Below are positions 2,878-64,000 of a stretch of DNA of 64,000 nt, one piece after another. The notes under the pieces are model-generated. The model did no database searches, had not been told where the DNA came from, and was given only the letters and a program-made list of their open reading frames with translations. The stretch lies in contig CM120648.1 in assembly GCA_051362555.1 (NCBI GenBank), positions 18,348,587-18,412,586 of the forward strand, in the 5' to 3' direction. The position numbers and the translations under genes are program-made. Each line of letters opens with the position of its first letter. Position 1 is the first letter of the stretch. Source of the stretch: Lingula anatina (Eukaryota > Animalia > Brachiopoda).

Positions 2878-2952
2878 ACCGGAAGTCGTGTTGCGCGCAA
2901 AGGATTATGGTCTATATGAATGAGGCGCCATTTTGTTCAACAACCAGGAAGT
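2878..2952 (+). promoter_or_regulatory. Putative core promoter of the NHL-Roc-COR-caspase gene
   Basis: ETS-type ACCGGAAGT (2878-2886), YY1-type CGCCATTTTG (2926-2935) and a second CAGGAAGT, about 200 nt upstream of ATG 3134. Confidence 0.5.
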
Positions 2953-3133
2953 AACAGGACGGAGATTGTGGGATAATGTTGAACATATTTGACAAAGAAA
3001 GAGATATAATCTGACTGACTTGTAGGTATATGGAGCAAGTGTTTATGTTACTGTGATCTCCAAGCTGCAGCACCAGAAGTGAACATAAAGTTTAGCAATC
3101 GCTGACAGAAATATTACAGGATCTACTGTCGGA

Positions 3134-4082
3134 ATGGAAGCCATATTAGGGCAGTCTAGACGAGGTGTAAATCCAAGATCAGGACAGGTGACAGTACAGA
3201 CACAACCTCCATTAGCTGAACAGGAAACAAATACAACGTTAGCTCTACATTCTAATGTTTTCTTAGACAAGGCAGAATGTGTGCGTTCCTTCAGTCCTAA
3301 ACTGGAAGATGATAGAGAAATAACCTACATAACTGGGTTAGCCATAGATAAGGAACACATGTTTGTTGTGGATAATGTAAACAACAGAACAAAAGTATTC
3401 ACACATGAAGGACAATTTAAGTTTGACATTAAAGTAAACAATCCATGTGATGTGGCTGTGTCACAGACTGGTCACCTGTATATAACATCACCAGATGACA
3501 GCTGTGTCCAAGTGTACTCCACCAGAGGTCAGCAGGTGACAACCATGGGTCAGGGTCTACTGAAGTATCCACAGGGTATTACACTGAACAGACAAGGTCA
3601 TGTGATGGTTTGTGACAGTGGGATAAAGAAGTCCATCTTCACATTCCATGCAGACAGTGGACAGCTCCTGAACACTATTCCACTCAGTATGTGTATATAC
3701 CCAGTGTACATCACAGTGAACAGTGTGAATGATAACATTGTGATATCAGACTTGGGCAGTGACCAGTGGGGAAACTGTGTACATGTGCTGTCACCTACTG
3801 GTGATCATCTGTACCAGTATGACGGCAGCAGAGAAGGCAGTGAACTGAGGTTTCCATGTGGAGTGTGCACAGACAGCTATGGTCACATCTTCATTGCTGA
3901 CAATGTTAACAACAGGATAGTGGCACTGAGTCCACAGGGACAGTTTATCAGATACATTGTCACTAAGGATGATGGGTTGAAGTCTCCCTATGCAGTAGTC
4001 ATCAACCCTGCTACTGGTCAGCTGGTGGTGGAAGAGTTTGGCGGCAATGTTAAGACATTCCAGTACATTGACCTGAAACAAG
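3134..4082 (+). CDS. Exon 1: NHL-repeat six-bladed beta-propeller (TRIM-NHL-like, no RING or B-box)
   Basis: NHL repeats such as [35 protein letters not shown] and [18 protein letters not shown]. Ends in consensus donor CAAG|GTGAGT (phase 1); the unspliced ORF stops at 4090. Confidence 0.92.
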
Positions 4083-4912
4083 GTGAGTAACATGTATTAA
4101 CTGTGGATAGATATGTTTATTATGTAAAATATTTGAAAGTTTATTAGTCTTACAATGTTTTATCCATGAATATGTTTGCCTTTATTTCAATAAAAAAAAA
4201 CTTTTAAGCATATTTAAATTCAGTGAGCACACAGCTGTGCTTTAGTAAAAATGTATGTAGAGTGGAGACATTTTCTATAGTTAATACTTTACTGTTACTG
4301 AACAATTTCCATGAACCCATTAGTGATTAGGATTTTGAATAAGGATGAAGAACTCTTTTTAATGGAATTTATAGTATGCTTTATTTGTATTTTTGTTAAG
4401 TCACAAGAAAAACATCTTACATTGTTTAATCCCTGAACTTCTTGTCCATTTGTCAGTAAAGAACAACTCAAATCTCACAACAGAACAGTCCAATTCTTCA
4501 TATTCTTTATCTTGTAGCTGTTCATGAAAGCTTAGATATACCTAAATTCTCAAATGTACTTTGTCAAGTTTCTCGATGTCTTACCACTTCTAGATTCAAA
4601 GACATTTCATCACCAGTTTGTTGTTAACACACACAAATAAATTAAATGTTGAAGTACTTTGGATGATACCTTATTTTCCTGACTTTGTAGATTGTTGTTT
4701 GCAAATAAAACTAGCAGACGACCATTTTTCATGAAATGGAACTACTTTTCACAGGAAGTAGTGTATTCATACACAACAGTGACCTTGGGTTTGGAATACA
4801 AAAAAATAGTACATGCATTCATACTGTCACAGCATGCAAATTATAATGAAATATACAAAACTAAACACATTTTTATGTAACACAAAAAGTTAAATGCATT
4901 TTTATTTATTTA

Positions 4913-4949
<37 letters not shown>

Positions 4950-7900
4950 CTGGATAAAAATGTTGATGAAATGGTTTTGACCACCTTTTTGGACTTTTTA
5001 AACTGCATGCTGATGGACCCACATATTTATGTCAAAGGCCAGGACCAAATCTAGTCCCATGCATAAAAAGCCCAGACCCCATATATTTATTATGCCCTGG
5101 CTGGGCCCATTCTTTATGCTGTTTGTATTGTTAACAGCATAATGGGCAAGTTAATTGACCAAGTTAATTGGCCAAGCTTATTGGCCAAGCTTCCAGTTTG
5201 TTTGTATGGCATGTGCAGGGGATGTCTTAGATCAAGGCGCATATTATGATACCTATAGGTGTGGCAAATGAGATGTGCTTGTATTTCATTACCTGTAATT
5301 TGTAAAATACATCAGAGGATGATACTTTTAAAGCTGTTTAATGTTTATATTTAAAGACATGTGTGTCGTAGATTGATTTAGTAGCATTTACTAAAGAATT
5401 TAAGCACAACATTCGGAGCAGCAAGACATTTACTTTATGTGGACATCAAACAGAGGAGACATGGCAGATGTGTCTGTACATATTTATAACCTGTAAAAAA
5501 AATTGGTGATAATTATTCTGTAATTTATTATGTAATGTTACATCAACAAAAATCTTTTTGTGCTGCTACTACAAACATTATGAAAAGAAAACTTTGTTAC
5601 TTATTATTATTTTTAACTTGCAAGTATGATCTTTAGGATTGGCATGCAGTTCAAATTTATTAGAAAGCCAGCTCAATTGGGTTATCATTTATTATTGAAT
5701 TCATGCAATTTTGTGTGAAATTTTCATTTTTCTCATTCTGGCATTTTCAAAGTGTGAACTCCCATGGGCCTGAAGCCATATTCTTGTTACACATTTTACT
5801 TACATAGGTATTACCTGTTGAGCACAAAAATTTGATGTTGAATTTGCAGTTAAGCATAGTGTACTTTTGCATCAGAATTGACAGTAGCCTATTTTGTGCA
5901 TTGTTATTGTCTGCTTTTTGTCTTTACATTTGACAGCTATGCTGCCTTGTTGTACCACCAGCGTTAGCGCTGGCGGTACACATGGTTTCGGTCCCGACCA
6001 GATCGTTCCGCCGGCTCCGCCGGACGGCTACCGTTACCGCTTCTCCTCCTAGACCATAAGGACCCCCATACCCATCTCTTGGATTTAGGTCACCTATAAT
6101 CTCAACTCGTTCCACGTAAAATTTGGGCTTTGTCGGTATTGGGGTCTGGGTGTGGCACTCATTGCAATGCACCCTTGTCCAAAAATGGCAAAATTAAATG
6201 CTAATTATCTACCCTACGGAAGGGGTTATGGGAAAAATTTCTACAGACGGCTTTCCAAAAGTCATATGTGTAGATTTCAAATATGCCCTTGGATTTGACC
6301 TTTGACCTTTACTTCAAGGTCAAACGGGCCAAAATTTTCAAAAAAATAAAAATTTTTACGAAAAAAATTTTTTTTGCCCTGTTATTCAGACACCACACAG
6401 ACTTAACCAATAATATTATTGGAAAGTGTTACCCTTCAGGTCATCTTTCATCTCCGTGAATTTGGGGTCAATCGGTGCATTTTCACGGGAGTAGCGACCA
6501 TAAGATACCGAAACTGAAAACTGTCTCTAATTCGGGAACCGTTAATGCTAGAGACCCATTCTTTTTTGCATTTTGTAGAGCATGTAAAGCCCAACATTGG
6601 AAGTGGTCTCCGTTTTTTTGTATTCCATACGGTTTTTGAGTTACGCTGTATCAAAAAGTACATATTGGTAGTGAAAGCAAAATGTGCAGTACGGTAATGG
6701 ATAATAAATTTTGAACTCCGGAAAAATAAAACATAAGGCTTGGCAAAGCAGACAACTTGTGGTCAAAAATGACATTATTTCATTAAATTTGAACTTTTGA
6801 TACTTCAGAGCACCTCCCATTTCAAGAATTTTGACCTAAATGACCTTTTCTTTATATTAAAATTTAATTTTTTCTGTAGGAAATTTATGGCACATTATGG
6901 TAACTCCAAAATTACAACATTTAGTCCCTTATATCTCCAAAACTGGCAGAGATATGTCCATAGTTACTATTGAAGTTAAATAGGAAGTCATATACTGGCA
7001 ATCTAAATGTGACCTTAAAATTGACCTTTGACCTACTTTTCACCATGAACTGAACTTGGCAAATTTTGCTTCCCTTTTATCTCCAAAACTGGCAGAGATA
7101 GGTCCATAGTTACTATTGAACTTGAATAGGAAGTCATATACTGGCAATCTAAATGTGACCTTGAAATTGACCTTTGACCTACTTTTTATCATGAATTGAA
7201 CTTTGCAAAATTGCTTCCCTTTTATCTCCAAAACTGGCAGAGATAGGTCCATAGTTGCTATTGAACTTGAAAGGGAAGTAATATCCTGGCAATCTAAATG
7301 TGACCTTGAAATTGACCTTTGACCTACTTTTCACCATGAACTGAACTTTGCAAATTTTGCTGCCCTTTTATCTCCAAAACTGGCAGAGATAGGTCCATAG
7401 TTACTATTGAACTTGAATAGGAAGTCATACACTGGCAATCTGAATGTGACCTTGAAATTGACCTTTGACTTACTTTTCACCATGAACTGAACTTTGCAAA
7501 TTTTGCTGCCCTTTTATCTCCAAAACTGGCAGAGATAGGTCCATAGTTACTATTGAACTTGAATAGGAAGCAATCTGAATGTGACCTTGAAATTGACCTT
7601 TGACCTACTTTTCACCATGAACTGAACTTTGCAAATTTTGCTTCCCTTTTATCTCCAAAACTGGCAGAGATAGGTCCATAGTTACTATTGAAGTTGAATA
7701 GGAAGTCATATACTGGTAATCTTAATGTGACCTTAAAATTGACCTTTGACCTACTTTTTACCATGTACTGAACTTTGCAAATTTTGCTTCCCTTTTATCT
7801 CCAAAACTGGCAGAGATAGGTCCATAGTTACTATTGAAGTTGAATAGGAAGTCATATACTGGCAATCTTACTGTGAAATTAACCTTTCACCTACCTTTTG

Positions 7901-10900
7901 ATGAACTTTTGATATATTTTTATGTACAGACACAGATGTGTCTGTACATATAGCCGTCATCTGCGTCTGTCATCGCCGTCGTCGCTGTCGCCGTCGCCGT
8001 CGCCGTCGCCGTGCACTTTTACCAATAACACGATAAGTGGAAAACTGTTTTTTCTTTTGGCTTGAAACTTACAGAACTAATGAATATTCATAATACGCAG
8101 GTCAAGTTCGAAAATCAGCATGATCGGGTCACTTATAGGGAATTTATGCTGTTTTTTCACTTTTTTCAGCATAAATGAAGCACCGATAACACGATAAGTG
8201 AAAAACTGTTTTACTTTTTGGCTTGAAACTTACAGAACTGATGAATATTCATAATACGCAGGTCAAGTTCGAAAACCAGCGTGATTGGGTCATTTTTAAT
8301 GAATTTAGGCTATTTTTCTCTTTTTTCAGCATAAATGCAGCACCGATAACATGATAAGTGGAAAACCATTTTACTTTTTGGCTTGAAACTTACAGAACTG
8401 ATAAATATTCGTAATACGCAGCTCAAGTTCGAAAATCGGCATGATTGGGTCATTTTTTAGTGAATTTAGGCTATTTTTTCTCTTTTTTCAGCATATATAT
8501 ACAGCACCGATAACACGATAACTGGAAAACCGTTTTGGCTTTTGGCTTGAAACTTAGAGAACTGATAAATATTTATAATACGCAGGTCAAGTTCGAAAAT
8601 CAGCATGATCGGGTGACTTGTAGGGAAGTTATGCTGTTTTTTTTTTTACTTTTTTCAGCATATATGCAGCACCGATAACAAGATAAGTGGAAAACAGCTT
8701 TACTTTTTGGCTTCAAACTTACAAAACTGATGAAGATTCATAATCCGCAGATCAAGTTCAAAAATCAGCATGATCAAGCCATTTTTAGGGGAGTTATGCT
8801 ATTTTTTCACTTTTTTCAACATATATGCAACACTGATAACACTATATAAGAAAAACAGATAGGCCAATTGTCATTATACTTACAGGAGTGGTCAATCTTA
8901 CTAAAATGCAGGTTGAGTTGGAAAATCAGCATAATCTGGCCATTATTTTAGAAGTTATGCTGTTTTTTCACATTTCCTCAGATTCAATTCTTAAGCATGT
9001 TAACAGTCTCATTATTTAACTAATAAGATACGTAACAGTGTTTGTTTGATATTTCCTGCATCTTTACAACATTGTTAGTTGATTATGTAAAAATGATGGT
9101 AAACTTGATATTGTGTATTGTGTAATAAAGTGTCAAAAATGGAAATAAACTCATATCATATCATATTGCAGTTTGTTAGATTCAATCATCAACTATGTTC
9201 AGAATCTCAGAATGGAGGAAATTGGACATTTAACACTGTTCTATTGATATTTTTCCCATCTCATCAATTTTCTTAGTTGGTCATATAAAAATGGAAGTAT
9301 ACTGTTTATTTTGTTTTGTTTAAAAAGTGTTAAAATGGAAATAAACCCATTTCAGAACAGTGCTGTCTTTTTTACAGTTTGGCATTTTTAAGATGTGACT
9401 TTGAAGTTCCATGAGCCTGCAGATCTTTGCTAGTCACATTTTCTGAATATCCATGATACTAATATTTTATGATTAAAAAGTGATGGTCATTATGCTGTAA
9501 AACATTATGTAATATTGCATCAAAATTTGAAGAAACCCCTATATTGGGCACTGCTCCCATGATGACCATTTAAGGAAAGTCATGTCACTTACTGTTCTCA
9601 AACTTACAGGAAAGAAACATGGGACTAAAATACAGCTTCAGTAGGCAATGCAGTCTGTTTGGTAAATTTTTCTGGTAGTTAAGCAGTTTTTTTGTGAAAA
9701 TTTAATTTTTCACATATTGGCATTTTCAATGTATGACTTTGAAGTTCCATGATCCTGAAGACCTTTGCTTGTCACATTTTCTGAATATGCGTTATACTAA
9801 TATTTTATAATTAAAAATTGATGGTCATTGTGCTGTTAAACATTATGTAATGTTGCATCAAAATTTGAAGAAACCCCTGTTTTGGGCACTGCTCCCATGA
9901 TGACCATTTAAGGAAAATCGTGTCAATTACTGTTCTCAAACTTACAGGAAAGAAACATGGGTCTAAAATACAGCTTCAGTAGGCAATGCAGTCTGTTTGG
10001 TTAATTTTTCTGGCAATTAAACAGTTTTTTGTGAAAATGTAATTTTTCACATATTGGCATTTCCAAGGTGTGACTTAGAACCTCCACGGGCTTGAAGACC
10101 CATGCTAGTCACATTTTCTGAAAATTCATGACACTTATATTTTATTATTAAAAATCGATGGTCATTATGCCGTTAAGCATTATGTAATGTTGCATCAAAA
10201 TAGAAGAAAACACAATTTTGGGTGCTGCTGCCTTGATGACCATTATGGGAAAACTGTGTTACTTATGACTGTCAAACTTTCAAAAAAGAAACACAGGACT
10301 AAAATGCAGCCTGAGTTGGAAAAGCAGTCTAATTGGCTTCTTTTTCTGGAAGCTATACATTTTAGTGTAATATTCATTATCTTTTTGGCATATTCATTGT
10401 GGGACTCAGAGCTCCCATGAACATGAAGCCGAATGGTAATCATATTTTCTACATGTCCATCCTATTTATAGTCAATAAACAAAAATTGGTGATAATTATT
10501 CTCTAATTTATTATGTAATGTTACATCAAAATTGACAACAATCTTTTTGCACTGCTACTGCAAACATTATGAAAAGAAAACTGTGCTACTTATTATCATT
10601 TTTAACTTACAAGTACGATTTTTAGGATTGGCCTTCAGCTCATATGAGAAAACCAGCTCTATTGGATTATCATTTTATTGAATTTATGCATTTTTTGTGA
10701 AATTTTCATTTTTCTCATTCTGGCACTTTCTAAGTATAAACTTGAACTCCGATGGGCCTGAAGCCTTATGCTTTTAATTTCGTCTGTGTTACCTGTTGTG
10801 CATAAGTTGATGTTGACTGTGCAGTTAAACATAATGTATTATTGCATCAGGATTGGTAGTCTCCTATTTTGGGCATTATGGTTTTGTGCTTTTCTTAAAG

Positions 10901-13900
10901 TGTGACTTATGGGCCTAAAGACCTTTGAGTGGGTCAGTCTGTAAATTACCCTTGGGTATCACTAGATTAATTTCAGAGTTATAAAGTCATTTGCCTTAAT
11001 AGGCCATTAAATGAGATTACATAAAGCACACTTGTTGATATTTCCCTGTAAACTCCCAAAGGTAAAGCTCTCTGCTAGATTAATAATAAGGAAGCAGTGA
11101 TAATTATGCAGGTAAATTTTGTTTAATATTGCAAATAAGTTTTAAATAATATATATATATATATCAAACTGGAAGATTAAAAGTTTGAATAGCATCTTCA
11201 TTGGAATTAAATTTACCTCAAGCTCTGCCAAGGAGGTCATATTTTCACCCCCATTTGTCTGTCATCCACATAACACAAAAAGTTATGGACTGATTTTGCA
11301 GAAATTTTCAGGAACTGTCGGAAGTGGGCCAAAGGGGACAATGATTAATTTTTGGTGGTGGTCTGGAACAATAATCAATCAATTATCAATAATAATCAAC
11401 AATTGCTGCCTTGGCAGAGGTCTGCACTCTCAAAGTGCTTTTCTAGCTTTGTTATGTTTTCCTTTATAATTTTTTCTCAAACACTTGCATTTGTGACTTT
11501 TAACTCTCATCTGCCTGGGGCTCTGCACATTTTCTGTATTTCCACATAAGCAGTTGTATTGTTTTTTATGTCTTTAAACATGTATTATTATTTTATGCAC
11601 TGTCATCATTTTTCAAATATTGAGAGTTTCATAATGTGAATTTGAACTCTCATGGTCCTGAATCTGTAATTTTATTGAAGGGGTGGACCATCTTCTGGGT
11701 CTTCCTGAAGACAGTCAGGTTATTAAGTTTATATTGACTGGTATGTATTTTTTCTGTTGGAAGACCATCAAAATGGAGGATGGATCAACATAGATACTTT
11801 GGAATACTGTCAGAAAATATCTCTGGGTCCGCTCCTGTTATTGACCATGTTACCTGTTGTGCAAGATTAAAATTCAGTGTTGACTGACAGTGCTATTATA
11901 AGCATTATTTATTATTGCATCAAAATTGACAAAATGACCTTTTTTGCATCTTTATTTTCTGTTTTTTGTCTGTACATTTGACAGCTTTGCTGCCTTGTTT
12001 TGCATATTTTGAAAATTCTTGTTGATTGCATTTTTACAGCTTGTCAAGCAAAAGACTGGTGGCTGTGTCCCTTATTTTGTGTATGTAGGGGTCTATACGA
12101 ATGCGCTTGCTCCAGCTGGTGGTACAATATTCGGAGGCGGTATCACCTCTCTGATCCTCTAGTTTACCCTTATCTTTGGATGCTGTGTTTTCACTCAATG
12201 CACATGTGCCAGTGTATGAATGGATTTGAAGTTAGTCATAATTTCTTGATATTTCCAATTCCTCTTGTTCAACTTCAGGTATTTTCATTGGTGTTTGTAT
12301 TTTGGTCTGTTATTACTTGAGCGTGATGCTGGGAATGATTGACTGATGATGAAGACAAAAGAATGAGTTCGCACACTTTATATGATATCTCTATTGCACT
12401 GTTTATTTTCATACAGCATACTCTAATTATGATTTTACATTAAAGAAGTGCTTTAAATGTCATTCGAACATTGGAATTACTGTAATTTTTTGTTTTTGAT
12501 GTGCAAGAAGTTTGAAAAGCACCAGAAAAATGGGATAGGTATTTTTGTTATAACAACCAACACAATAATTAGCTTCCAAAATTGTAATTCTCTTATTATA
12601 TCTGTCCATAATTGTTTCATTTAAGCTTTCCTACTTGTACATGTCTTGTTCTTCAGACTGCATATTCAGTTGAGATTTTTTACTGAGAATGAAAAAAGTA
12701 TGTCTGTGACCATAATGTAACAACGAACACCAAATTTAGCTTCTACTGGTTGCAAAGAGCAGTGTATGTGTGCACTGTTGTGTCATTGCTTTGTATATTG
12801 GTACAAGATCTAGAAAAAATACATGTGATCTGTTCTCAGACAAACTGTGTAGCTTCCAGGTGTATTTTAGTGCTCATAAGTATGTCCATTCTTAAGATGT
12901 AACAACCAACACCAACATTGTTATTTTCCTGTGTTCATTCACAGTGTATTTCCAACTGATGCTTGTTTTCTGTCAAAAGGGTTGACATAAATTTGAATAC
13001 ATACTAAATGAAAGTCATGTAGGTGTGTTTTCTTGTTTATTTTTTAAAGTTTGAATGTGTGGAAGGGTTGATTGTTACGCCGGACATACCACAACATGCA
13101 AATATTTACAGAAATTATTTCTCATGGCAATTTTTGCATTGTATATCCCCTAAGGATAGCTTTCTTTTCAAATTAAATGTTAAGATTATTCCCAACAATT
13201 ATTTCTTCATTGCACAGGAGCTGTATTTGTATGTCCGGCGTAACAACCAACACCAAGCTGTCTCATCAGCTATTTCTAGCTGCTATATCTCAAAAACCTG
13301 CTGATGAGTTATCTTTTTATATGCAGGGTAACACTCTTAAAACAGCACACTTTCAGTACCACTAGCTGTGACACCTGAAAAAGCATGTCTAGTTTTGGTC
13401 CTTTTAGTTATCTTTTGCCACGACATTTTGTCACATGCTCATATACATATGTTTGTGCCAATTTTTAGAAACTACACCGACCTAACAGGGGGGATTACAT
13501 TTTGGGACTTCATCTGCGGGAGTTTGGGGTCAATTGGTGCATTTTCACAGGAAAAGCAGCCGTTAGATGCCAAAGCTGAAAACTCTCTATTAAACCCGAA
13601 CCCTAAATACAAGAACCTCTTGTTTTTTGCATTACGTAGAGCTTGTCAAGCTCAATTAATACTGGGGTTGGAATCCATTTTTTTTTGTTTGTTTTTGATA
13701 TGTAGGTTAGGAGTTGTGCTATATAAAAAAGTACATTTCAATTTTCAGTAGTGAAGCAAAATGTGAAATACTCAAAAACTGGCAGAGATACACCCATGGT
13801 TACTATTGACCTTGAATAAGAAGTCACATACTGGCAGCCAAACTGTGACCTTGAAATTGACCTTTGACCTACTTTTCATCATGTACTAAGTCTTGCAAAT

Positions 13901-16900
13901 TTTTTGCCTCTTTTATCTGCAAAAATGACAGAGATACACTTATAGTTACTATTGACCTTGAATAGGAAGTCATATACTGGCAATCTTACATTACGCCGCT
14001 TTGTAATCTGGAACATAGTCGATCTTACACGTCAGAATTTGTGTGCAAATCGACTTTGTGATTTACATGATAAATGTCTTTATACTTCACTTCGTTCTTC
14101 AGCAGTGATTCAGTATCCAGGGGCCGGTTTCACAAAGCAGTAGTTAGTTAGCCATCGGTAGTTAGTCTCTCGCTAGTTATAGTGCCATTTCACGAAGCAG
14201 TCGCTATTTCTTTGCTCGTTATTGTCTCGTTGTTGTCTTGGATATTTAACGACTGGTCAGACCAGTTGCTAACTCTAGAGTTTCATCGTACGCATGCGTA
14301 ATGAGTGAAATAAAAAGGTTGCTTAGTTACCGTTGTCTGTCGTTTGTCTTTGTATCCAATATGGCGGCTACTATTTTTTGTTATCCGTACCGCCAGACGG
14401 CAACGTAGACTACAACGTTTTCATGAAAGGCAGAATCTATTAGAATATACACACGATGATGCAATTTACGAGAGGTTGCGCCGAGCTGTGACAAAAAGAG
14501 CGGCAAAAAGGTGGCGGAGATCCTTTACGACGACCTCAAAGCAGACGTTCTTATGCATTTCCAGCCACCAAAAATTGGAGAGTTAGTGCTTTTGTGACAC
14601 TTTTACGCAAGATTTCCACTTCCGGCAGACGGTTTCGAGACTACGGTGAGTAACGAGAGAACTAACGACCGAACTTTACGACTGAACTTAGCGATGAGTT
14701 AACGACTGCTTCGTGAAACACCTCTCGAAAATCGCAAAATTTGCTCGTTAGCGAGGTAGTTCAGTAGTTAGTTGTTCTAACTAACTACTGCTTTGTGAAA
14801 CCGGCCCCAGATTACACACCCTTTTTATGTACAGACACAGATGTGTCTGTACATATAGCCATCATCTGCGTCTGTCGTCGCCGTCGCCGTCGTCGCTGTC
14901 ATCGCCGTCGTCGCCGTCGCCGTGCACTTTTACCGATAACACGATAAATGGAAAACTGTTTTTTCTTTTGGTATGAAACTTACAGAACTGATGAATATTC
15001 ATAATACGCAGGTCAAGTTCGAAAATCAGCATAATCGGGTCACTTTTAGGGAATTTATGCTGTTTTTTCACTTTTTTCAGCATATATGCAGCACTGATAA
15101 CACGATAAGTGGAAAACCATTTTACCTTTTGACTTGAAACTTACAAAACTGATGAATATTCATAATACGCAGGTCAAGTTCGAAAATCAGCATGATCGGG
15201 TCACTTTTAGGGAATTTATGCTGTTTTTTCACTTTTTTCAGCATATATGCAGCACCGATAACACGATAAGTGAAAAACCATTTTACCTTTTGGCTTGAAA
15301 GTTACAGAACTGATGAATATTCATAATACGCAGGTCAAGTTCGAAAATCAGCATGATCGGGTCACTTTTAGGGAATTTATGCTGTTTTTTCACTTTTTTC
15401 AGCATATATGCAGCACCGATAACACAATAAGTGAAAAACCATTTTACCTTTTGGCTTGAAAGTTACAGAACTGATGAATATTCATAATACGCAGGTCAAG
15501 TTTGAAAATCAGCATGATCGGGTCATTTTTAGGGAATTTATGCTGTTTTTTCACTTTTTTCAGCATATATGCAACCCCGATAACACGATAAGTGGAAAAC
15601 CATCCTACCTTTTGGCTTGAAACTTACAAAACTGATTAATATTCATAATACACAGGTCAAGTTCGAAAATCAGCATGATTGGGTCATTTTTAGGGAATTT
15701 ATGCTGTTTTTTCACTATTTTTCAGCATATATGCAGCACCGATAACACCATAAGTGGAAAACCATTTTACCTTTTGGCTTGAAACTTGTAGAACTGATAA
15801 ATATTCATAATACGCAAGTCAAGTTCGAAAATCAGCATGATTCGATTATTGTTAGGGAATTTATGCTGTTTTTTCACTTTTTTCAGCATATATGCAGCAC
15901 TGATAACACAATAAGTGGAAAACTGTTTTTTCATTTGGCTTGAAACTTACAGAACTAATGAATATTCATAATACGCAGGTCAAGTTTGAAAATCAGCAAG
16001 ATCGGGCAATTTTTATGGAAGTTATCCTGTTTTTTTTTTTTTTTTTGTTTTTTTTTCAATTTTTTCAGCACTTTTATAACACCGATAACATGATAAGTGT
16101 AAAAATGTTTTTCCTTTCCTTGGATTGAAATTTACAGAACTGGTGAATATTTATTATACGCAGGTCAAGTTTGAAAATTGGCATGATTGGACTATTTTTA
16201 CAAAAGTAATGCTGTTTTTTTCCCTTTATTCAGCATACATGCAACACTGATAACGCATTTTAAGGAAAACCAATCAGCCTTTTGTCTTGCAACTCACAGG
16301 AGTGATCAATCTGACCAGTATACAGATCAAGTTTGAAAATAAGCTTGATCAGTTAAGTTTTGATGAAGTTATTAGCCTTTTTGTATATAAGTGGTTTTTC
16401 TTCAGATTTAATTCTTAAGCATGTTAACAGTCTCATAACGGTACTAATTGGATATGTTAAAGTGTTGTTTTAACATTTTCTGCTTCTTAACAATATTGTT
16501 AGTTGATTATATAAAAATGACGGTAAACCTATTATCCTGCATTGTGTAATAAAGTATCAAAAATGGAAAGGAACTCATCATTGCAGTTCATCAGATTCAA
16601 TCATTCACTATGTTCAGAATCTCCAAATGGAGCTAATTGGACATTATAAATTGTTCTATTGATATTTTTCCTATGTCAACAATTTTCCTAGTTGATCATT
16701 TAAAAATGACAGTTAATTGATGATGGTTTTATGTAAAAAAGGTGTTGAAAATGGAAAGAAAATCATTTCAGTACAGTTATCTCTTGTTAACATTTTGGCA
16801 TTTTGAAAGTGTGACCCTAACTTCCATGTCCTTGGAGACCTTTCCATATCACATTTTCTGAATATCCATGATACTTTTATTTTTTTATAAAAAATTTGAT

Positions 16901-18878
16901 GGTCATTATGCTGTTAAGTATTATGTTATATTGCATGAAAGTTAAAGAAAACCCTATTTTGGACACTGCTGCCAGGATAGCGATTAAGGGAAAACCATGT
17001 TACTTATGATAATCAACCTTACTGAAAAGAGTGAAGTGCAGCTTGTGTTGGAAAACCATCGTAATTGTTTTCTGTTTTGAAAGCAATGCAGTACAGTGCT
17101 ATTTGGTGCAATAAATGTATATGGATAGTAGGCAGTTAATTCAGGGTTATAAAATAATTTGCTTAATTGATTTTCAAGTTATTTCAGGGTTATAAAATAA
17201 TTTGCTTAATTAATTTTCAAGTGGGTATTAAATGAGATTACATAAACACACATTGAGATTTCATTGTAAAGTCCCATCGGTTTAGCTTTCTTAACTGTGT
17301 CACATAATTAGGAATCGATGATTATTATGCAGGTAAATGTTATTTAATATGGAAAATAAGTTTACAAAAAAAAATTTGTGTAACGCTTACATTAATGCTA
17401 AAGATGAATAACAGTGCCTTATTATTCTCAAACTCAATAGGGTTATTCATATCATGTTAGTAATTGTACAGCTAGATTAAAAGTTTGAATAGCAGCTTTA
17501 TTGGTATTTTTTGTTATGTTTTATTTTACATTTTCTTTTAATTTTTTTATGCTGTTTTTTCACTTTTTTCAACATATATGCAACATTAATAACACAATAT
17601 AAGAAAAACAGCTTAGCCAATTGTCATTATACTCACAGGAGTGGTCAATCTTACAAAAATGCAGGTTGAGTTCGAAAATCAGTGTTATCGGGCCATTATT
17701 TTAGAAGTTGTACTGTTTTTTCAAATTTCCTCAGATTCAATTCTTAGGCATGTTAACAGTCTCATTATTGAACTAATAAGATATGTAAAAGTGTGTGTTT
17801 GATATTTCCTGCATCTTTACAACATTGTTAGTTGATTATGTAAAAATGATGGTAAACTTGTTATCATGTATTGTGTAATCAAGTGTCCAAAACGGAAATA
17901 AACTCATATCATTGCAGTTTGTCAGATTCAATCATCAACATCTGCCATGATGACCATGATGGGAAAACCGTGTTCGTTATGATTGTCAAACTTTCAAAAA
18001 AGAAACACAGGACTAAAATGCAGCCCAAGTTGGAAAAGCAGTCTAATGGGCTTCTTTTTCTGGAAGTTATTCATTTTAGTGAAATATTCATTATCTTTTT
18101 GGCATATTCATTGTGGGACTCGGAGCTCCCATGGACATGAAGCCGGATGGTAATCAAACTTTCTACATGTTCATGCTATTTATAGTCAATAATCAAAAAT
18201 TGGTGATAATTATTCTATAATTTATTATGTAATGTTACATCAAAATTGACAATAATCTTTTTGCACTGCTACTGCAAACATTATGAAAAGAAAACTGTGT
18301 TATTTATTATTATATTTAACTTAAGAGTATGATTTTTAGGATTGGCATGCAGTTCAAATTAGAAAGCCAGGTCAATTGGGTTATCATTTATTATTGAATT
18401 TAATGCAATTTTGTGTGAAATTTCATTTTTCTCATTCTGGCACTTTTTAAGTATAAACTTGAACTCTGATGGGCCTGAAGCCTTATGCTTTTACTCTCAT
18501 CGGTGTTACCTGTTGTGCAAAATTAAAATTTGATGTTGACTGTACAGTTAAACATAATGTATTATTGCATCAGAAGTGGTAGTCTCCTATTTTGTGCATT
18601 ATTGTTTTGTGCTCTTCTTAAGTTGTGACTTATGGGCCTGAAAGACCTTTGAGAGGGTCAGTCTATAAATTTCCCTTGGGTATCACTTCGCTAATTTCAG
18701 TTATAAAGTAATTTGCCTAATTGATAGGCTACATAAAGCACACTTGTGATTTGAGATTACATAAAGCACACTTGTTGATATTTCCCTGTAAACTCCCATA
18801 GGTTAAGCTCTCTGCTAGATTAATAATAAGGAAGCAGTGATAATTATGCAGGTAAATTTTGTTTAATATTGCAAATAA

Positions 18879-18943
<65 letters not shown>

Positions 18944-21900
18944 AACTGAAAGATTAAAAGTTTGAATAGCAGCTTCATTGGAATTATATTTACCTCTGCC
19001 AAGGAGGTTATATTTTCACCCCTGTTTGTCATCAACATAACTCAAAAAGTTATGGACCGATTTTGCTGAAATTTTCAGGAACTGTCAGAAGTGGGCCAAA
19101 GAGGACAAAAATCAATAATAATCAACAATTGCTACCTTGGCAGAGGTCTGCACTCTCGGAGTGCTTTTCTAGTTTTGTTGTTTTCCTTTATAATTTTTTC
19201 TCAAACACTTGCATTTGTGACAACTCTCATCCGCCTGAGACTCTGACATTTCTGTTTTTCCACATAAGCAGTTGTATTGTTTTTTATGTCTTTAAACATT
19301 ATGTTACTTATGTAATATTATTTTATGCACTGTCATCATTTTTCAAATATTGAGACTTACATCATGTGAATTTGAACTCTCATGGTCCTGAAACTGTAAT
19401 CTTATTGAAAGGGTAGATTGAGACCATCTTCTGGGACTTCCGGAAGACAGTCAGGTTATTAAGTTTATATTGCCTGGTATCTATTTTTTCTTCTGTTGGA
19501 AGACCATCAAAATGGAGGATGGATCAAAATAGATACTTTGGAATACTGTCAGAAAATATCTCTGGGTCCGCTCATGTTATTGACCATTTTACCTGTTGTG
19601 CATGATTAAAATTCAGTGTTGACTGACAGTGCTATTATAAGCATTATTTATTATTGCATCAAAATTGACAAAATGACCTATTTTGCATCTTTATTTTCTG
19701 TTTTTTGTCTGTACATTTGACAGCTTTGCTGCCTTGTTATCTATCTAGATCTATTTTACTCAAAGTTTGTTTTACCCTGATATAAATAACGCACCATAGT
19801 ATTTTTGGGAATTTCTCAATTCAGTTGAATTCAAAATTTTTTATTGAGCTGCGATGTAACGACTTTTGTCATCGTGAAAATGTAAGATTTTACATAACAC
19901 ACTAATACCCAATGCATTTTCCATTTGAAAAAAAAAAAAAAACATTTCCACCAATTTAGAGTAGGTACGAGGGAGTTTTTGTGCAGGGATGGAGCGATAA
20001 GGGGGAGTATCGGTGCAGGAAAATATAAGTACAGGAAGTATTGGTGCGGGAAATTTAAACTGTGACGTACCTTATACACATATAGGCACTGGGAATTGTC
20101 GGCACGGGGGTTGTATAGGTACGGAGGAGTATTTGTGCGGGGACTTAAAGCACAGGGGAGTATCGATCAAGGGACATACACAGATAGGTAGGGAGAGAAT
20201 TGGTGCCGGGGTGTATAAGGTATGCTGCCGTTTAGTAGCAGTAGCGAAAGTGTACCAGTATTATGTTAAAAATTTGACGTTGTGACAGGAAAGGTAGTTT
20301 TAATGGGTGGATTCAAACATGGTCGTATAGGCACGATCTGTACATATTTCTGTAACATACATTGAGAACTCCAATAACCTTTTCCCAGCCTATTTTATCT
20401 TGATATTATCCTCCTCTGTGCTGCTCCTTCATTTACTGTTTAAATTCACTTCCTTTCTTGAATGCCACTCCTTCCATCATCTCAGCATCATCATTTAGAC
20501 ATAGCTGTTCAGTCTTGCTACTACTCACCTCCATCCTGTTACTCTCAAGCACATATGCAGGCATCCACCTCTCTAGATTTTCTCTCGCTTCCTCTCTGCT
20601 ATTGCTTCACAATAAATATAACATCTGCAAACATCATCATTCACCTTATCCATAATCCATGAGTCCTTTTGTCAATGTGAAGCATCACATTTGTATTACC
20701 AGGTGAGTTTAATGAACGGCTTCGCCGATTGTGTGAAAGTGGTAAGATTCCAGTATACCGACAGCGAGTAGCTATTGTTGGACCTTACGGTGTGGGAAAG
20801 ACTCATCTCGCCAAGCGCCTCATCCATGAGGAATATATCAAAGAAGAAGATGCAAATACAACTGGCGTGAATATATACCGCCATAGGTGTGTTGTCCATA
20901 AAGCTGGCCGATCCTGTTGGATCAGAGGAAAAGGTAAGCAGAATAAAGGAAAACATTTGACACATATGGAATTTGTTTATAAAGAATACGAAGAACAGCA
21001 GATAAGACATTTTCAATTTTACCGCATAACCCACAATAAGGAATTATACATACGTGTACATGTGGGTGTCGAAATGTGTCCTTCCCTATCTTAGTATGGT
21101 AGACGAGGGGCTGAGTGAAATAGTACCTAAATAAGTGGTGCCTTTGTATTGTTATCAATCAATTAACATACATGACACTTTACAATCTACTCCTACAGCC
21201 CATTGATTATTTTTTAACTGGGTACAAACACTATAATTTCATTCTTTGTAAAAACACCATGCTTTATTCTACTCAATATTGAATTGAATTTTTCAACGGT
21301 GTAGCCTGATACGTACACTCAGAAAGGGTACATTTAGATACAACGCTTGATCTACCTGTATGATCCTTCCAACTATTCTCAGATGATCCAAAAGACCAGT
21401 TTGCACAAAACATGGCAATTGGAGTACAGAATTCAGATACGTTTTGTGAGCCGGACTTAACAGTATTGGACCAAACGCCACTAGAGGAATCCCCACCAGA
21501 TTCAGAAGAGAATATTAATAACATGCTGACAAATAGAGGTATTGTACATGATTGTCTCGAATAGTTCATCTTGGTGCAATTTAAACAGATATTTGTAGTT
21601 ATTCTTCTTTTTTGCCAAGAGATTCCACCTTCTATGTGTTTTTCTTTGGCCATTCCACATATATGTGCCTTGAAAACATTTTTGTTTACTTCAAGGTTGA
21701 TTCTTTTTCTGTTAGAATGTTGTTTGATATTATTCTTCTCTTTATTCTACAGCTGCTTCCCCTGATGACAGTGAATCACCTGCCTCTCCTGACAAAGCAG
21801 CAGGTAAGTAGTTCACATGTAGTAAAACAAAATTCTCGTGTGTTGCTCAGAATGTTCGAGAGTTTTTCTTAGCTTGTTGATAAGGTATGTGAGTTTCTAT

Positions 21901-24900
21901 CTTCTTATTTTCATCATACTGGGACTTTGAACTCACATGGGCATGAAGCCTGGTGGTAATCAAATTTTCTTAATGTCCATGTTTTTAACAGAAGATAATT
22001 AAAATTTTGTGGTATTTATACAGTTGACCATTATGTTATATTGCATCAAAAACCTACTTTGTGCACTATCACCATAACGTTATAAAAAGAAAACTGTTAC
22101 CTATTTTATATTTACAAAAAAATGATTCTTAGGATTGACAAACAGCTTAAATTAGAAAAACCAGCTCTTTTGAATTATCCTTTTTATCGAATTATGCATT
22201 TTTTGTGAAATTTTTATTTATCTCATTCTGGTGTGAGCTTGAACTCTCATGGGCCTGAAGCCTTATGCTTTTACTTACATCGTTATATACTGTTGTGCAT
22301 AATTAAATTTTGGGGTTGACTGTGCAGTTAAGCATTGTATTACATTAGAACTGACAGCCTCCTATTTTGTGCATTATTATTTTCTGTTTTTTAAAATTGT
22401 GACTTAGATATTTCATGGGCCTGAATACCGTTGCTAGTCACATTTGGGTGACAAGCCTCTAATCTTCCATTGGGTAACTACTAGCTAAATTCAGAGCTAT
22501 AAGGTCACTTGCCTAAATTAAGTTTCAAGTGGCAATAAAATGAGATCATATAAAACACACATGTTGAGATTCCCTGTAAACTCCCATAGGTTAAGTTTTC
22601 TGCCAGATAACAGTGTCCATAATAGGGAAGCAGTGATAATTATGCAGATAAATGTTGTTTAATTTTGCAAATTAGTTTTCAAAAAATTATTTTGTATAAT
22701 GCCAACATTAATGCTAGTTTTAAAAGCAGCTTTACTGAAATGTTTTGTTTTTAATTTTTTTCAAACACTGAGGGTTTCAACTCAATTTTTAACTCCCCTC
22801 CACCTGAAGCTCTGCACATTTTCTGTTTTCCCACAAAAGCAGTTGTATTGGTATTTATGTATTTCAGCATTATGTAACATTATATTATTCTATGCACTGC
22901 TTTCATATGTCAAATATTGTGATTTTCATTACTAGTATGTGAATTTGAACTTTCGTGGTCCTGAAACTGTAATCTTATCATAGGGGCAGATTGGGATCGT
23001 CCTCAAGGTTTTCAGGAAGACGGTCAGATTTTAAAGTTAACATTGACGGGTATCTAATTTTTTTGTTGGAAGACCATCTAAAATGGAGGGTGGATTAACA
23101 AAGATATTTTAAAATACTGTCAGAAAATACATTTGGATCCGCTCCTGTTATTGACCATGTTACCTGTTGTGCATGACTTAAATTCAGTGTCGATTGACCG
23201 TGCTATTACAAGTATTATTTATTATTGCATCAAAATGAGAAAATAACCTATTTTTTGCATCTTTATTTATTTATTTATTTATTTATTTATTTTGTCTGTA
23301 GACTTGTCCTTCAAGAAATACATGCCTTCAAGAAATCGACGAAAACTGGAAGTGCATGTTTTTTGCACTGTTTTTCCTGTCATGCCCATCGTAAACACTG
23401 TGTTGTCAAGTAAAAGGAAGCATCTGATACAAAGTATCAAACGCGGCATTGACGTGCTTGCTTGCGATGTGTTCAGTACACTTTGTTTACACTGACAAGT
23501 CGAGGTCAGAAATGCACAATGTTTTTCTATGTAATTACGCAGTTTCAATTTTGATTAGTGAATTTTTTTTTATCTGCATGGTCATTTTCCGAACATTTGT
23601 ATAAGCCACGAAATATTTCTCATCGGAAAATCACCCAGCAGCTTTCCAAGTACAAGCGAGTGACGTCATGACGCACTTCCGGTTTTCGTCAAGATCTTGA
23701 AGGGATTAGCGTTATGGTTTGCTGCACATTTAAAGCGTTCTGTCTCTAAATGTACTTGACTGCTTGGATTGAAATTTACAGAACTTATTCTTCACATGAT
23801 ATCACACATATGTGCTTAATTTGAGAGCTTTAGCTGTTATATATTTTCTACAGTGCCCATTCAAAATTGAAAAAGAGCTATTTTCCGTCAATTTTTCTTG
23901 AAGGGCAGGTCTACATTTGACAGATTTGCTGTCTTGTTTTATCTGGGTACAAACACGACAATTTAATTTTCTGTAAAATAAGTCTTCTTTATATGACTGA
24001 GGATTATTTTTCTTTTTGCCAAGGGATTCCACCTTCTATGTGTTTTTTGTTGGCCATTATACCTTATGTGCCTTGAAGACTGGACACTTGATACCAATTA
24101 TACTTGATCTTATTAGATGCATTTTCGATGTAATTTATTTATTTTTATACAATATTTATAGACCAATATCCCAAAGTTATATGTTAAAATTTTGTAAAGA
24201 AATTCCTTTATCTTAGCCACATTTTTGTTTACTTTAAGATTGAGTCATTTTCTGCTAGAATGGTGTTTGATATTCTTCTTCTCTTTATTCTACAGCCGCT
24301 CCACCTGCCTCTCCTGACAGAGCAGCAGGTAAGTAGTGCACATGTAGTAAAACAAGATTCCGTCTTTTGCTCATAATCTGCAAGAGTTGTTCTTAGCTTG
24401 TCGATTAAGTATGTGAGTTCCTGCATTCTTATTTTCATCAAACTGTATTAATAATGTTATATTAAAATTGACTATACCTTACAATTTTAATTGATTTTAA
24501 TGAATGTTAAAACATTCAGTATTTATCACCCAGTTATGTTTTGAGCTTACTCACTTGTATTCAACAGAGAGGATACATTTTTAAGAAAAAAATGTTTTTT
24601 TTTTTGGAAATTGCCGATAAACCTTCAGAAACAGATGAAAGCTTCTAATTTATTTGATAACTGTTTCACAAAGTTAATTGACACTAAATACATTCAAATT
24701 TTGTCAATGATTACAATACTTTTTTATGCTAAAAAGTTTTATTTTAACCACACTGTTTATTGTACAGTCCTTTTCAAAGGTGAAAGTGGATCTCATACCT
24801 CTGGGGAAGAAAACATGAGTAGTATAAGAATGTTGACGATATGTCGATGTATGAACAGTCCCTGACAAATGAAATAAATTAGATTGAAAGCATGTCTATA

Positions 24901-25681
24901 AAAATTAAGGTCTAGTCTCTCACAACCCCCCCCCCCCCCCCCCCTTGAAGAAGGCACATCAGCTGAAAACTCAATTGGGCGCTTGATACCAATTATACTT
25001 ATTACATGCATTTTCAATCTAATTTATTTATTTTTATACAATATTTATACAATATACTGTGGGATTAATACGATGATTTGGATAAATATGCATGCATTGC
25101 AATACATAACAATATGCATTATGCTAAAATCATTTAGTTTGGACATAGCTTATTGTATTCATTGCAGTGGCAGAAAGGAACCATCTAGATGATATTGACA
25201 AGGAGCTATTGGAAAAAATTGAGAAAATTGCCCGAGGGGAAGATGTGGAGCCAGAGAAACAGGTCACAATTTGGGATTTTGCAGGACAGGATGTCTACTA
25301 CACCACGCACCAAACATTCCTCTCAGAGCGGATCATCTACTTGTTGGTATTCCGACTTGACCAGGACCTCGATGATAAAATCCGTGTATACAGGGGAGAG
25401 AAGACGCTGAAAGGTATTGTTGAGCTTTATATCTTTACATGTATAAGCTACTCAGGGCCCTCATGTAAATAATGGCCTGTCAACTGTGTGTAATTTCTTT
25501 ATTAAAAGGTCCACATTTTTAAATCTCTCTATTGCTCTTAATATATATATATATATATATAACATTGAGATTTTAGTAGCGTTAATTTTAAATGGTTCCG
25601 ATGAGTGTTTTGGATTTTAATATTCTAGTGATTTTAAGGATTTTAGTTATATTTACCATTGTAAGCCGCCCAATAAGAAAC

Positions 25682-63024: not shown

Positions 63025-64000
63025 TTAGTACCACCAGTCGGGCGCCGGAAACAAGTCACCGTTACCGCTTCTCCTCCTAGACCGCAAGGACCTGTGTCCC
63101 CATCTCTTGGATTTAGGTCACATATAATCTCAACTTGAACACCCTGGTTTTTTTGTCTCCGTCGGTGCACTGGCCTGGGCGTGACGCTTGTTGAAATGCA
63201 CCCATGTCAAAATTTTTGAAAATTCAATGCTAAATATCTCCCAAACCAAAGGAATTATGGGAAAAATTACTACAGAAGTCTGACCGAAAGTCATATGTGG
63301 AGATTCCAAATATGCCCTTGGATTTGACTTTTGACCTTTTTTTCAAGGTCAAACAAGCCAAAATTTTCTAAAAATGGGAATTTTCTGTAAAAAAATATTT
63401 GTTTGTGCTAATTTTTGGAAACTACGCAGCCCTAAGCTCTCCTGTTATAGTGAGGGGTTACCATTGGGGACTCCTTTCATCTGTGAGAGTTTGGGGTCAA
63501 TAAGTGCATTTTCACGCGAGTAGAAGCCATTAGATACTGAAACTGAAAACTCGCTCTAAATCTGGAACGGTAAATGCCAGAGACCTCTTTTTTATTGCAT
63601 TTTGTAGACCTTGTCAAGTGCAATACTGGGGGTGGTGTCCATTTTTTGTTTTTGATATGGCTTAGGCGTTGCCCTATATCAAAAATTACAACATTACAAT
63701 ATTCAGTGGGGAAAATGTGAAATACTCCAAAATTAGCAGAGATACGCCCATAGTTACTATTGAACTTGAATAGGAAGTCATATACTGGTAATCTAACTGT
63801 GACCTTGAAATTGACCTTTGACCTACTTTTCATTATGAACTGCACTTTGCAAGTTTTCTGATCTTTATATCTCCAAAACTGGCAAAGATATGCCCATAGT
63901 TACTATTGAACTTGAATAGGAAGTCGTATACTAGTAATCTAACTGTGACCTTGAAATTGACCTTTGACATACTTTTCAGTACTGCACTTTGCAAGTTTTC
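63025..64000 (+). mobile_element. Helentron/HINE-like family A, copy 5 (cut by the window end)
   Basis: 5' end matches the 49605 copy; 146-bp units from ~63720. Confidence 0.75.

Follow-up and report, generated by a model that had tools for sequence, protein, structure and literature searches.

The locus considered here raises the question of whether an open reading frame (ORF) for an NHL propeller and a set of Roc, COR and caspase exons, which begin some 16.6 kb further downstream in the genome of the brachiopod Lingula anatina, belong to one and the same gene. The window, i.e., the whole stretch of 64,000 nucleotides (nt) that was analysed (assembly GCA_051362555.1, contig CM120648.1, positions 18,348,587 to 18,412,586 of the forward strand; positions below are those of the window), had been read in a preliminary description as carrying in the NHL ORF the probable first exon of a ROCO-caspase, spliced from 4082 to a Roc exon at 20703. 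This reading was borne out by RNA reads from both sides of the intron, by two RefSeq models and by a read depth that is continuous from ~2900-2950 onwards. RNA of the gene is spliced from 4082 to 20703, a result that we regard as virtually certain. The parts of the locus that meet at this junction are:

3134 to 4082, + strand: coding part of exon 1, with a 40-residue disordered leader, a six-bladed NHL propeller (Pfam NHL, 7.6e-13) and the phase-1 donor AAG/GTGAGT (the stroke marks the splice site)
4083 to 20702, + strand: intron 1, 16,620 nt, GT..AG, read-through of its donor stopping at the TAA at 4088-4090
20703 to 20933, + strand: exon 2, phase 1-1, with the Roc P-loop GPYGVGKT and the switch I motif TTGV (Pfam Roc, 2.2e-6)

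The NHL ORF runs from the ATG at 3134 to the TAA at 4088-4090 and ends in CAA G/GTGAGT, a consensus phase-1 donor after 4082 which is located five codons past the last propeller strand (residues 306-312 of the structure model). The exon at 20703 follows the acceptor CAG/, opens in phase 1 and extends over 231 nt to 20933, whereby its P-loop is preceded by no in-frame ATG and by one out-of-frame ATG at 20712; both features, the donor at the ORF end and the phase-1 Roc exon lacking an in-frame start before its P-loop, were seen in the sequence as described. RNA data were raw reads of the same species label from six runs (X1, X2, X4, X5, X6 and X7), with X1, X2, X4 and X7 mapped on the Roc side and X4, X5, X6 and X1 on the NHL side, where results on read joints refer to the rows listed, next to which 56 further rows exist. 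The spliced reads between 4082 and 20703 that had been named as a check were found as reciprocal loose read ends: 28 reads of X6 leave the window sequence behind 4088 with a consensus equal to window positions 20709-20738 in 30/30 letters, and 11 reads of X4 carry loose letters before 20701 whose consensus equals positions 4051-4080 at 29/30 letters. The read break is placed at 4088 and 20701 because both intron ends share AGGTGAGT, the copies at 4081-4088 and 20701-20708 being the sole two on the + strand of the window; given this shared sequence, short read overhangs at the ends of intron 1 resemble intron retention. On the NHL side, X4 gave 11 reads of mixed consensus, in which 13 letters of the 20703 exon are followed by letters that translate as NRQD and resemble the other Roc partner of the database protein P0003, and hence related NHL exons of other loci appear to be present in the read pile. 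No loose ends matching the NHL end were found on the Roc side in X1, X2 and X7, where depth is little, and no joint at 4088 was listed for X5 and X1. The same junction is found in the two L. anatina RefSeq models XP_013379953.1 (P0039) and XP_023930482.1 (P0004), whose identity to the window amounts to 75/76 and 74/76 for exon 2 and to 275/309 and 267/313 for the NHL part, respectively; exons 2 and 3 are 97-100% identical to both.

Several observations weigh against assigning this junction to the very locus in the window. Only 103/1,612 reads of X6 are at least 99% alike to it, the reads being from other animals, and junction reads may therefore stem from different alleles or from closely related paralogues, among them P0034 with its HEPN end. 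The consensuses of the loose ends have an agreement of 0.64-0.79 and are thus mixed, the evidence for the joint consists of two reciprocal loose ends in place of one skipping read, and junction rows were present in 1/4 runs on the Roc side and in 2/4 runs on the NHL side. Taken to its end, this would mean that paralogous loci gave rise to both the junction reads and the models and that the NHL and Roc exons are unjoined in this haplotype, either decayed or misassembled, in line with most reads being 90-99% alike with fixed differences from the window and with a local duplication of 4-5 kb in the interval. Such a scenario was judged extremely unlikely, as both splice sites match the consensus, their phases agree, no other exon lies between them, the read consensus equals the window exon letter for letter and the frame stays intact over 14 exons.

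An origin of intron 1 by an insertion with an 8-nt target duplication, as the presence of AGGTGAGT at both ends might suggest, was considered and found unlikely, since other members of the NHL family end at the same position. As these members have other partners, the donor is older than the join of NHL and Roc. Exon 2 itself opens with GTGAGT, which places a donor look-alike directly behind the acceptor (CAG/GTGAGT at 20703), so that splicing regenerates the donor AAG/GTGAGT. An acceptor followed by a re-used donor is the layout of an RS-exon, i.e., of a recursive splice site. If the regenerated donor were used again, the 231-nt P-loop exon would be lost in frame; no read skipping exon 2 in this way was present among the rows listed, and the layout may be a product of chance.

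With the splice established, it was asked where the transcript begins and whether it may end early, for which two short features are relevant:

2879 to 2952, + strand: promoter region with ETS-like sites at 2879 and 2945 and a YY1-like site at 2927; transcripts start here
4189 to 4194, + strand: AATAAA with no sign of use, neither read ends being listed nor depth dropping

The promoter-like motifs that had been proposed upstream of 3134 were recovered as these three sites, which we take to be of the ETS and YY1 types, whereby the two ETS-like ones are 2 of 8 in the window. Depth rises from 17 (2816-2939) to 164 (2940-3063) in X6 and from 0.7 to 46 in X4; on the sense strand it goes up at ~2900-2950 and continues unbroken into the NHL ORF, with no joint among the rows listed. 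Considering this start of depth, the missing joint and the adjoining motifs, the NHL exon was identified as the first exon, its transcripts beginning ~200 nt upstream of the ATG at 3134. A separate spliced transcript of the + strand is located further upstream, where 24 reads of X6 join an exon end at 1691 to an acceptor at 2115/2116 (regions 1661-1691 and 2116-2330); within 1661-2330 it has no long ORF, and no joint to the NHL exon was found among the rows listed.

The AATAAA at 4189 had led to the idea of a short NHL-only isoform ending near 4200, possibly a decoy. Hexamers of this kind occur 15 times in the 16,620-nt interval (0.9 per kb), and the signal at 4189 is therefore no more than chance gives. 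That the locus mainly makes such a decoy, with the long form as a minor product, would agree with the stop that read-through of the donor meets, with four RefSeq models that end just behind the donor (P0040, P0041, P0042 and P0044), which may represent either genuine short genes or first exons cut short, and with the sense-strand depth of X6, which is 15-21 over 4180-4800 versus 94-219 in the exon. Near 4200 itself, however, neither a drop in depth nor a pile of read ends was found, the depth of X6 fading only at 4800-5300 (1 by 5300); in early intron 1, X4 and X5 have a depth of 0-2.5, the poly(A) run X1 has none at 4056-4427, and X4 still has ~2 near the 3' end of the intron, a pattern expected of unspliced RNA. 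The intron 1 signal is strong in one of four runs (X6), for which longer unspliced or intron-terminated RNA is possible. The isoform ending near 4200 hence found no support, and a locus devoted mainly to it is regarded as very unlikely.

The interval between the two exons had been described as almost all transposon DNA. Its repeat-filled nature was confirmed, as 73% of the interval is found more than once in the window and copies of 38% lie beyond its borders, yet its transposon nature was overstated, given that 0/7 ORFs of at least 100 amino acids match Pfam. Search with 67 homologous proteins (tblastn) gave no match in 4100-20690 and thus no further coding exon. The following blocks were distinguished:

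5947 to 7899, no strand assigned: element, dispersed and non-coding, that includes a 146-nt tandem array; further copies at 25972, 35358, 49625-49708 and 63035-63058
7917 to 11999, no strand assigned: repeat block with 161-nt and 338-nt arrays, local duplicate at 14822-19738, part of it also at 21914-23268
14113 to 14815, no strand assigned: element with 39-nt inverted ends (92% complementary), which appears to resemble a miniature inverted-repeat transposable element

Behind exon 2, the question becomes how far the reading frame that starts in the NHL exon can be followed. Fourteen stop-free and phase-compatible exons were found from 3134 to 44066, together coding for ~1,277 amino acids with the domain order NHL, Roc with an acidic insert, COR and caspase, and it is considered highly probable that they give one NHL-Roc-COR-caspase protein as modelled. 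The exons following exon 2 are:

21383 to 21538, + strand: exon 3, acidic insert within Roc, phase 1-1
21753 to 21803, + strand: exon 4, 51-nt low-complexity spacer, the copy number of which varies between transcripts
24296 to 24328, + strand: exon 5, 33-nt partial copy of exon 4
25168 to 25413, + strand: exon 6, Roc switch II WDFAGQ (Pfam Roc, 2.9e-8)
25804 to 25928, + strand: exon 7, Roc G4 motif GTHKD, 93-95% identical to P0034 and P0004, join predicted
28025 to 29195, + strand: exon 8, end of Roc and COR (Pfam COR-A, 2.8e-21), join predicted
29867 to 29916, + strand: exon 9, short linker with the GC donor GAG/GCAAGT, the least certain exon, assigned from phase only
30239 to 30409, + strand: exon 10, first part of the caspase large subunit (Pfam Peptidase_C14, 7.5e-10), join predicted
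32625 to 32844, + strand: exon 11, caspase catalytic motifs SHG and QACQG (Pfam, 1e-18), join predicted
33107 to 33277, + strand: exon 12, linker between the subunits, containing EVPD as a possible processing site; resembles P0066, no Pfam match, join predicted
35221 to 35330, + strand: exon 13, caspase small subunit SWR..KGTWFVQ (Pfam, 1.2e-5), join predicted
43917 to 44066, + strand: exon 14, caspase C-terminal strand TSLRKKVFF, ending in the TAA at 44064-44066 or in a phase-1 donor after 44019; weakly supported

Exons 2 and 3 are joined by 36 reads in X4 and by 2 each in X1 and X2, and exons 3 and 4 by 34 reads in X4. Read joints going back by 51 document further copies of exon 4, of which P0004 holds two, and the joints of exon 5 appear as steps back by 27 with CCGCTC in between (14 reads in X4, 6 in X1); the connection from exon 4/5 to exon 6 was seen as loose ends that read the first letters of exon 6 (29 reads in X4, 9 in X1). 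The spacer exon (21753-21803 and 24296-24328) is tandemly duplicated together with its flanks and is present in one to three copies in reads and models, and the length of the Roc insert therefore varies. The joins of exons 6, 7 and 8 are predicted and matched by the database proteins P0034-P0038. Exon 14 lies behind an intron of 8,586 nt, can be aligned with the 34 C-terminal residues of P0073 (E 0.019) and has no Pfam match. Two splice sites of this region stand out: a predicted GC-AG intron between the COR and caspase exons (29916-29922), and a consensus phase-1 donor at 44019-44025, behind the caspase C-terminal strand, owing to which a further exon may exist.

Less favourable to the model is that no read tests the joins behind exon 6, that exon 9 needs a GC donor and that exon 14 is weak. 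The NHL-Roc-COR transcript could instead end at or after exon 8, where read-through meets a stop at 29240-29242, the caspase exons then being a separate or decayed neighbour. Such an arrangement is found in the reference, where a caspase with the motif QADQG (P0066) forms its own model beside the HEPN-ended paralogue P0034, and it would sit well with joins behind exon 8 that no read covers, with the dependence of exon 9 on its GC donor and with a last intron of 8.6 kb. Against it, 14/14 exons are stop-free and phase-compatible, the caspase exons have in the model neither an in-frame start nor a prodomain of their own, and Roc, COR and caspase form a single chain in P0035 (COR 76% identical), P0073, P0084 and P0076 as well as in P0070 of Owenia fusiformis (CAH1786849.1). 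A separate caspase was consequently considered unlikely, and the fourteen-exon model is retained below.

By its sequence, the predicted protein is a ROCO protein and a caspase, and it is neither a TRIM-NHL protein nor an NLR. The Roc GTPase shows all motifs G1-G5, with exons 2 and 6 above the Pfam cut-off; COR follows directly after Roc, COR-A being located in exon 8. The caspase possesses the His-Cys dyad (SHG and QACQG, exon 11) and both the large and the small subunit, exons 10, 11 and 13 being above the Pfam cut-off and the catalytic exon 11 matching caspase-2 best in the PDB (6e-18). Residues of a basic S1 pocket are present, namely the R of ERDGT, the Q of QACQG and the R of SWR, which have these roles in caspase structures. 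In the model, no death-fold prodomain of the CARD or DED type was found, NHL-Roc-COR taking its place, and neither a NACHT nor an NB-ARC ATPase, the NTPase of the gene being Roc. The gene also lacks the order by which TRIM-NHL proteins are defined, i.e., RING, B-box and coiled coil followed by NHL at the C-terminus: none of the 67 fetched proteins, many of them TRIM-NHL, gave a RING, B-box or coiled-coil match upstream of 3100.

The origin of the sensor was addressed by its fold and its relatives. The structure model of the NHL exon (predicted local distance difference test, pLDDT, 86.9) is a six-bladed propeller, built of six four-stranded blades with NHL repeats, and the NHL domains of TRIM2/TRIM3 are its closest folds (E 2e-19; template modelling (TM) score 0.75 by query). 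Twelve of the 67 fetched proteins share the same 11 N-terminal residues with the NHL exon, and they continue differently: two into this Roc, two into another Roc, two (isoforms of one locus) into a Q-rich tail with a weak CARD match and, doubtfully, one into a CLCA-like chain (P0016, an older model that may be a false join), whereas four stop at the donor and one is partial. In a quick tree of 42 rows, the NHL-exon family forms one group among the Lingula TRIM-NHL domains (support 91), and the residues MEAMLGQ at its start correspond to the linker (L)EAMLGQ that precedes the NHL domain in these Lingula TRIM proteins; on these grounds the exon is likely to derive from the freed 3' end of a TRIM-NHL gene. 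An exchange of NHL exons between loci was considered too; the three carriers of the Roc exon do not cluster in the quick tree, yet their framework distances are among the smallest (5-8), and exchange is therefore not documented by these data.

Variation within this family is concentrated on one side of the propeller. In an alignment of nine sequences (P0016, P0044, P0052 and P0065 being left out), 29/33 columns with at least four states fall on the top face (p 2e-18), defined as the loops that precede strand a or connect strands b and c and comprising 59 of 268 positions; the a-b and c-d loops of the opposite face (53 positions) contain 0 such columns. Between the window and P0039, 5 of ~210 framework positions and 23/53 top-face positions differ, and between the window and P0004 these numbers are 7 of ~210 and 35/58. 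Genome heterozygosity is given as 1.6% (PMC4595640). Read variants comprise 23 replacement and 4 silent changes in the NHL exon versus 7 and 14 in exons 2 and 3 (p 3e-4), counted from 40 of 202 and 40 of 46 rows. Both marks of a diversifying receptor, variation on the ligand face and an excess of replacements, were hence found, the second on partial counts. The top face corresponds to the RNA- or ligand-binding face of the Brat NHL domain (PMC4015489).

Roc-COR-caspase chains without the NHL exon and NHL-Roc chains without the caspase show how widely the parts of this architecture occur. Roc, COR and caspase are one chain in the five proteins named above, among which P0070 carries Bcl-2, Roc, COR and caspase; the N-terminus of Lingula P0073 looks similar to that of P0070 and has no Pfam match. 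Among the Roc-COR paralogues of Lingula, the C-terminal domain is caspase, HEPN or a weak RHIM. P0066 of Lingula is a close caspase paralogue with QADQG for QACQG, by which it is likely inactive, and adjoins the Roc-COR-HEPN paralogue P0034 on one scaffold. When 1.84 billion representatives were searched with a profile, the best 150 included 145 new ROCO proteins, of which 84 have at least 110 residues before the P-loop and 7 an NHL-like N-terminus (in the control, 0/840 shuffles reached E 0.05). All seven come from freshwater mussels (P0085, P0096, P0115, P0116, P0126, P0135 and P0196), and the NHL-like-Roc-COR chains of mussels end in HEPN, TIR, CARD, Death or SH3-Death. Taking the Lingula and mussel cases together, NHL-Roc-COR-effector is therefore a recurring design in lophotrochozoans, whereby the version with a caspase was seen only in this window among the proteins compared.

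Based on this architecture, the protein is suggested, with moderate confidence, to work as an intracellular immune receptor by a sensor-switch-effector mechanism. The suggestion builds on the splice, on expression from the + strand, on the joins of exons 2 to 6, on the intact GTPase and caspase motifs and on the confinement of variation to the top face, all of which were observed. The top face of the propeller would bind a foreign or damage-derived ligand, and variation between alleles or paralogues would alter what binds. Binding would then shift the nucleotide and dimer state of Roc-COR. Initiator caspases are activated by being brought together, and the Roc-COR shift may likewise bring two caspase domains together and so activate them, with cell death or inflammatory cleavage as the putative outcome. 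Dimers are the form in which ROCO proteins act (PMC4104024). In evolutionary terms, the exon freed from the TRIM-NHL 3' end likely spread as a phase-1 cassette before several switches and effectors.

This functional reading has weaknesses of its own. The roles of ligand, GTPase, dimer and protease rest on inference. The variant counts stem from partial rows, different thresholds and mixed loci and are therefore no formal test of selection. RNA is the putative ligand that ancestry suggests, but with 5 K+R and 3 D+E the top face encoded in the window is only mildly basic. Caspase was found in 6/145 ROCO proteins and NHL together with caspase in 0/145 (among the best 150), and no fetched protein holds both, P0039 and P0004 stopping before COR and P0035 being without an N-terminus. 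A gene built as modelled might also employ its variable propeller for self/non-self or gamete recognition or for binding host RNA or proteins in development. TRIM-NHL proteins bind host RNAs via the same face (PMC4015489), the promoter has a constitutive appearance and transcripts of the exon family are present in 4/4 runs of the NHL side. Regulators of development, by contrast, are conserved, whereas 43-60% of the positions of this face differ between carriers of the same Roc exon, and the partners caspase, HEPN, TIR, Death and CARD are typical of immune and death signalling (PMC8195603). A role apart from pathogens is hence thought rather unlikely, although it is the most plausible of the alternatives, and the immune-receptor reading is preferred. 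Going further, it is possible, if doubtful, that lophotrochozoans possess their own class of NLR-like receptors, consisting of a TRIM-derived NHL sensor, a ROCO switch and an exchangeable effector (caspase, HEPN, TIR, Death or CARD); for Lingula, this would make the sensor a mobile first exon whose RNA-binding face turned hypervariable, possibly for viral RNA, and which is exchanged between loci, and donor re-use could make a switch-dead form.

The remainder of the window is rich in repeats and transposon-type genes. Within the last intron, transposon-type genes occupy 37630-43230, with SWIM and YqaJ-like ORFs on the + strand (37630-38457 and 40044-40730) and a DDE_Tnp_4 transposase on the - strand (41550-43230). 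An ORF at 44119-44751 matches nothing in Pfam and looks like a decayed reverse transcriptase. Elements with long inverted arms are located at 30721-32390 (712 nt, 84%) and 52322-55690 (621 nt, 95%), and an ORF at 62325-62642 matches the P2RX7 C-terminal domain (7e-17) within a transposon-rich stretch.

How pathogens are detected inside the cells of invertebrates, which have no antibodies, is largely open, and so are input and output of most ROCO proteins. The present gene unites both in a single chain, its sensor having a defined variable face and its protease being accessible to standard assays, and thereby makes testable what switches Roc-COR on and whether an NHL propeller may serve as a pattern receptor. 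Short NHL models of Lingula named 'TRIM3-like' or 'lin-41-like' may, in addition, be cut-off first exons.

In the literature searched (main texts, few subscription journals), no account of an NHL sensor coupled to a ROCO switch was found, NHL-Roc-COR-caspase included; the NHL-Roc join is already present in unnamed database models. The RefSeq models XP_013379953.1 and XP_023930482.1 (NHL-Roc, truncated) and XP_013401300.1 (Roc-COR-caspase without its N-terminus) have nearly the same Roc exons, but none spans NHL to caspase, whereas the window holds the whole predicted gene. The sensor-switch-effector logic of ROCO proteins is known from bacteria and brown algae, and the combination of NHL and caspase would be the new element. 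Prokaryotic AP-GTPase (Roc)-COR proteins directed against invaders carry variable effectors including caspase (Kaur et al. 2021, PMC8195603); with these, as far as that source describes them, the gene shares a fast-evolving N-terminal repeat sensor, the Roc-COR switch and a variable C-terminal effector, whereas their sensor consists of leucine-rich repeats (LRRs) in a bacterium and the present one is an NHL propeller from animal TRIM-NHL genes that is joined by splicing. In the candidate immune receptors of the LRR-Roc-COR type in brown algae, exon shuffling diversifies the LRRs (PMC11378527). An expanded family, a sensor under diversifying change and modularity at the exon level are common to both; unlike the algal genes, in which each LRR is one exon and these are shuffled, the whole sensor is here one exon with substitutions on one face, and a caspase follows COR. 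For O. fusiformis, a caspase with a ROC prodomain was reported, and in the available part of that source PARP-caspase is named for Lingula and Roc-caspase is not (PMC11463336); that protein, the identity of which with CAH1786849.1 is not assumed, likewise has Roc-COR and a C-terminal caspase in a lophotrochozoan but is without an NHL sensor. TIR-ROCO proteins are present in Aplysia (PMC9334734). With TRIM2/TRIM3, Brat and TRIM71 the gene shares the six-bladed NHL fold (PMC4015489), and unlike these it is without RING, B-box and coiled coil, its NHL domain being N-terminal and hypervariable on the top face.

NLRs and Apaf-1-type STAND receptors unite sensor, switch and effector in one chain, a receptor logic that is outlined for the STAND type in PMC8195603. 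In comparison with these, the gene would at most work like an NLR: its switch is a Ras-like Roc GTPase in place of a STAND ATPase, and the sensor comes first in the order of domains.

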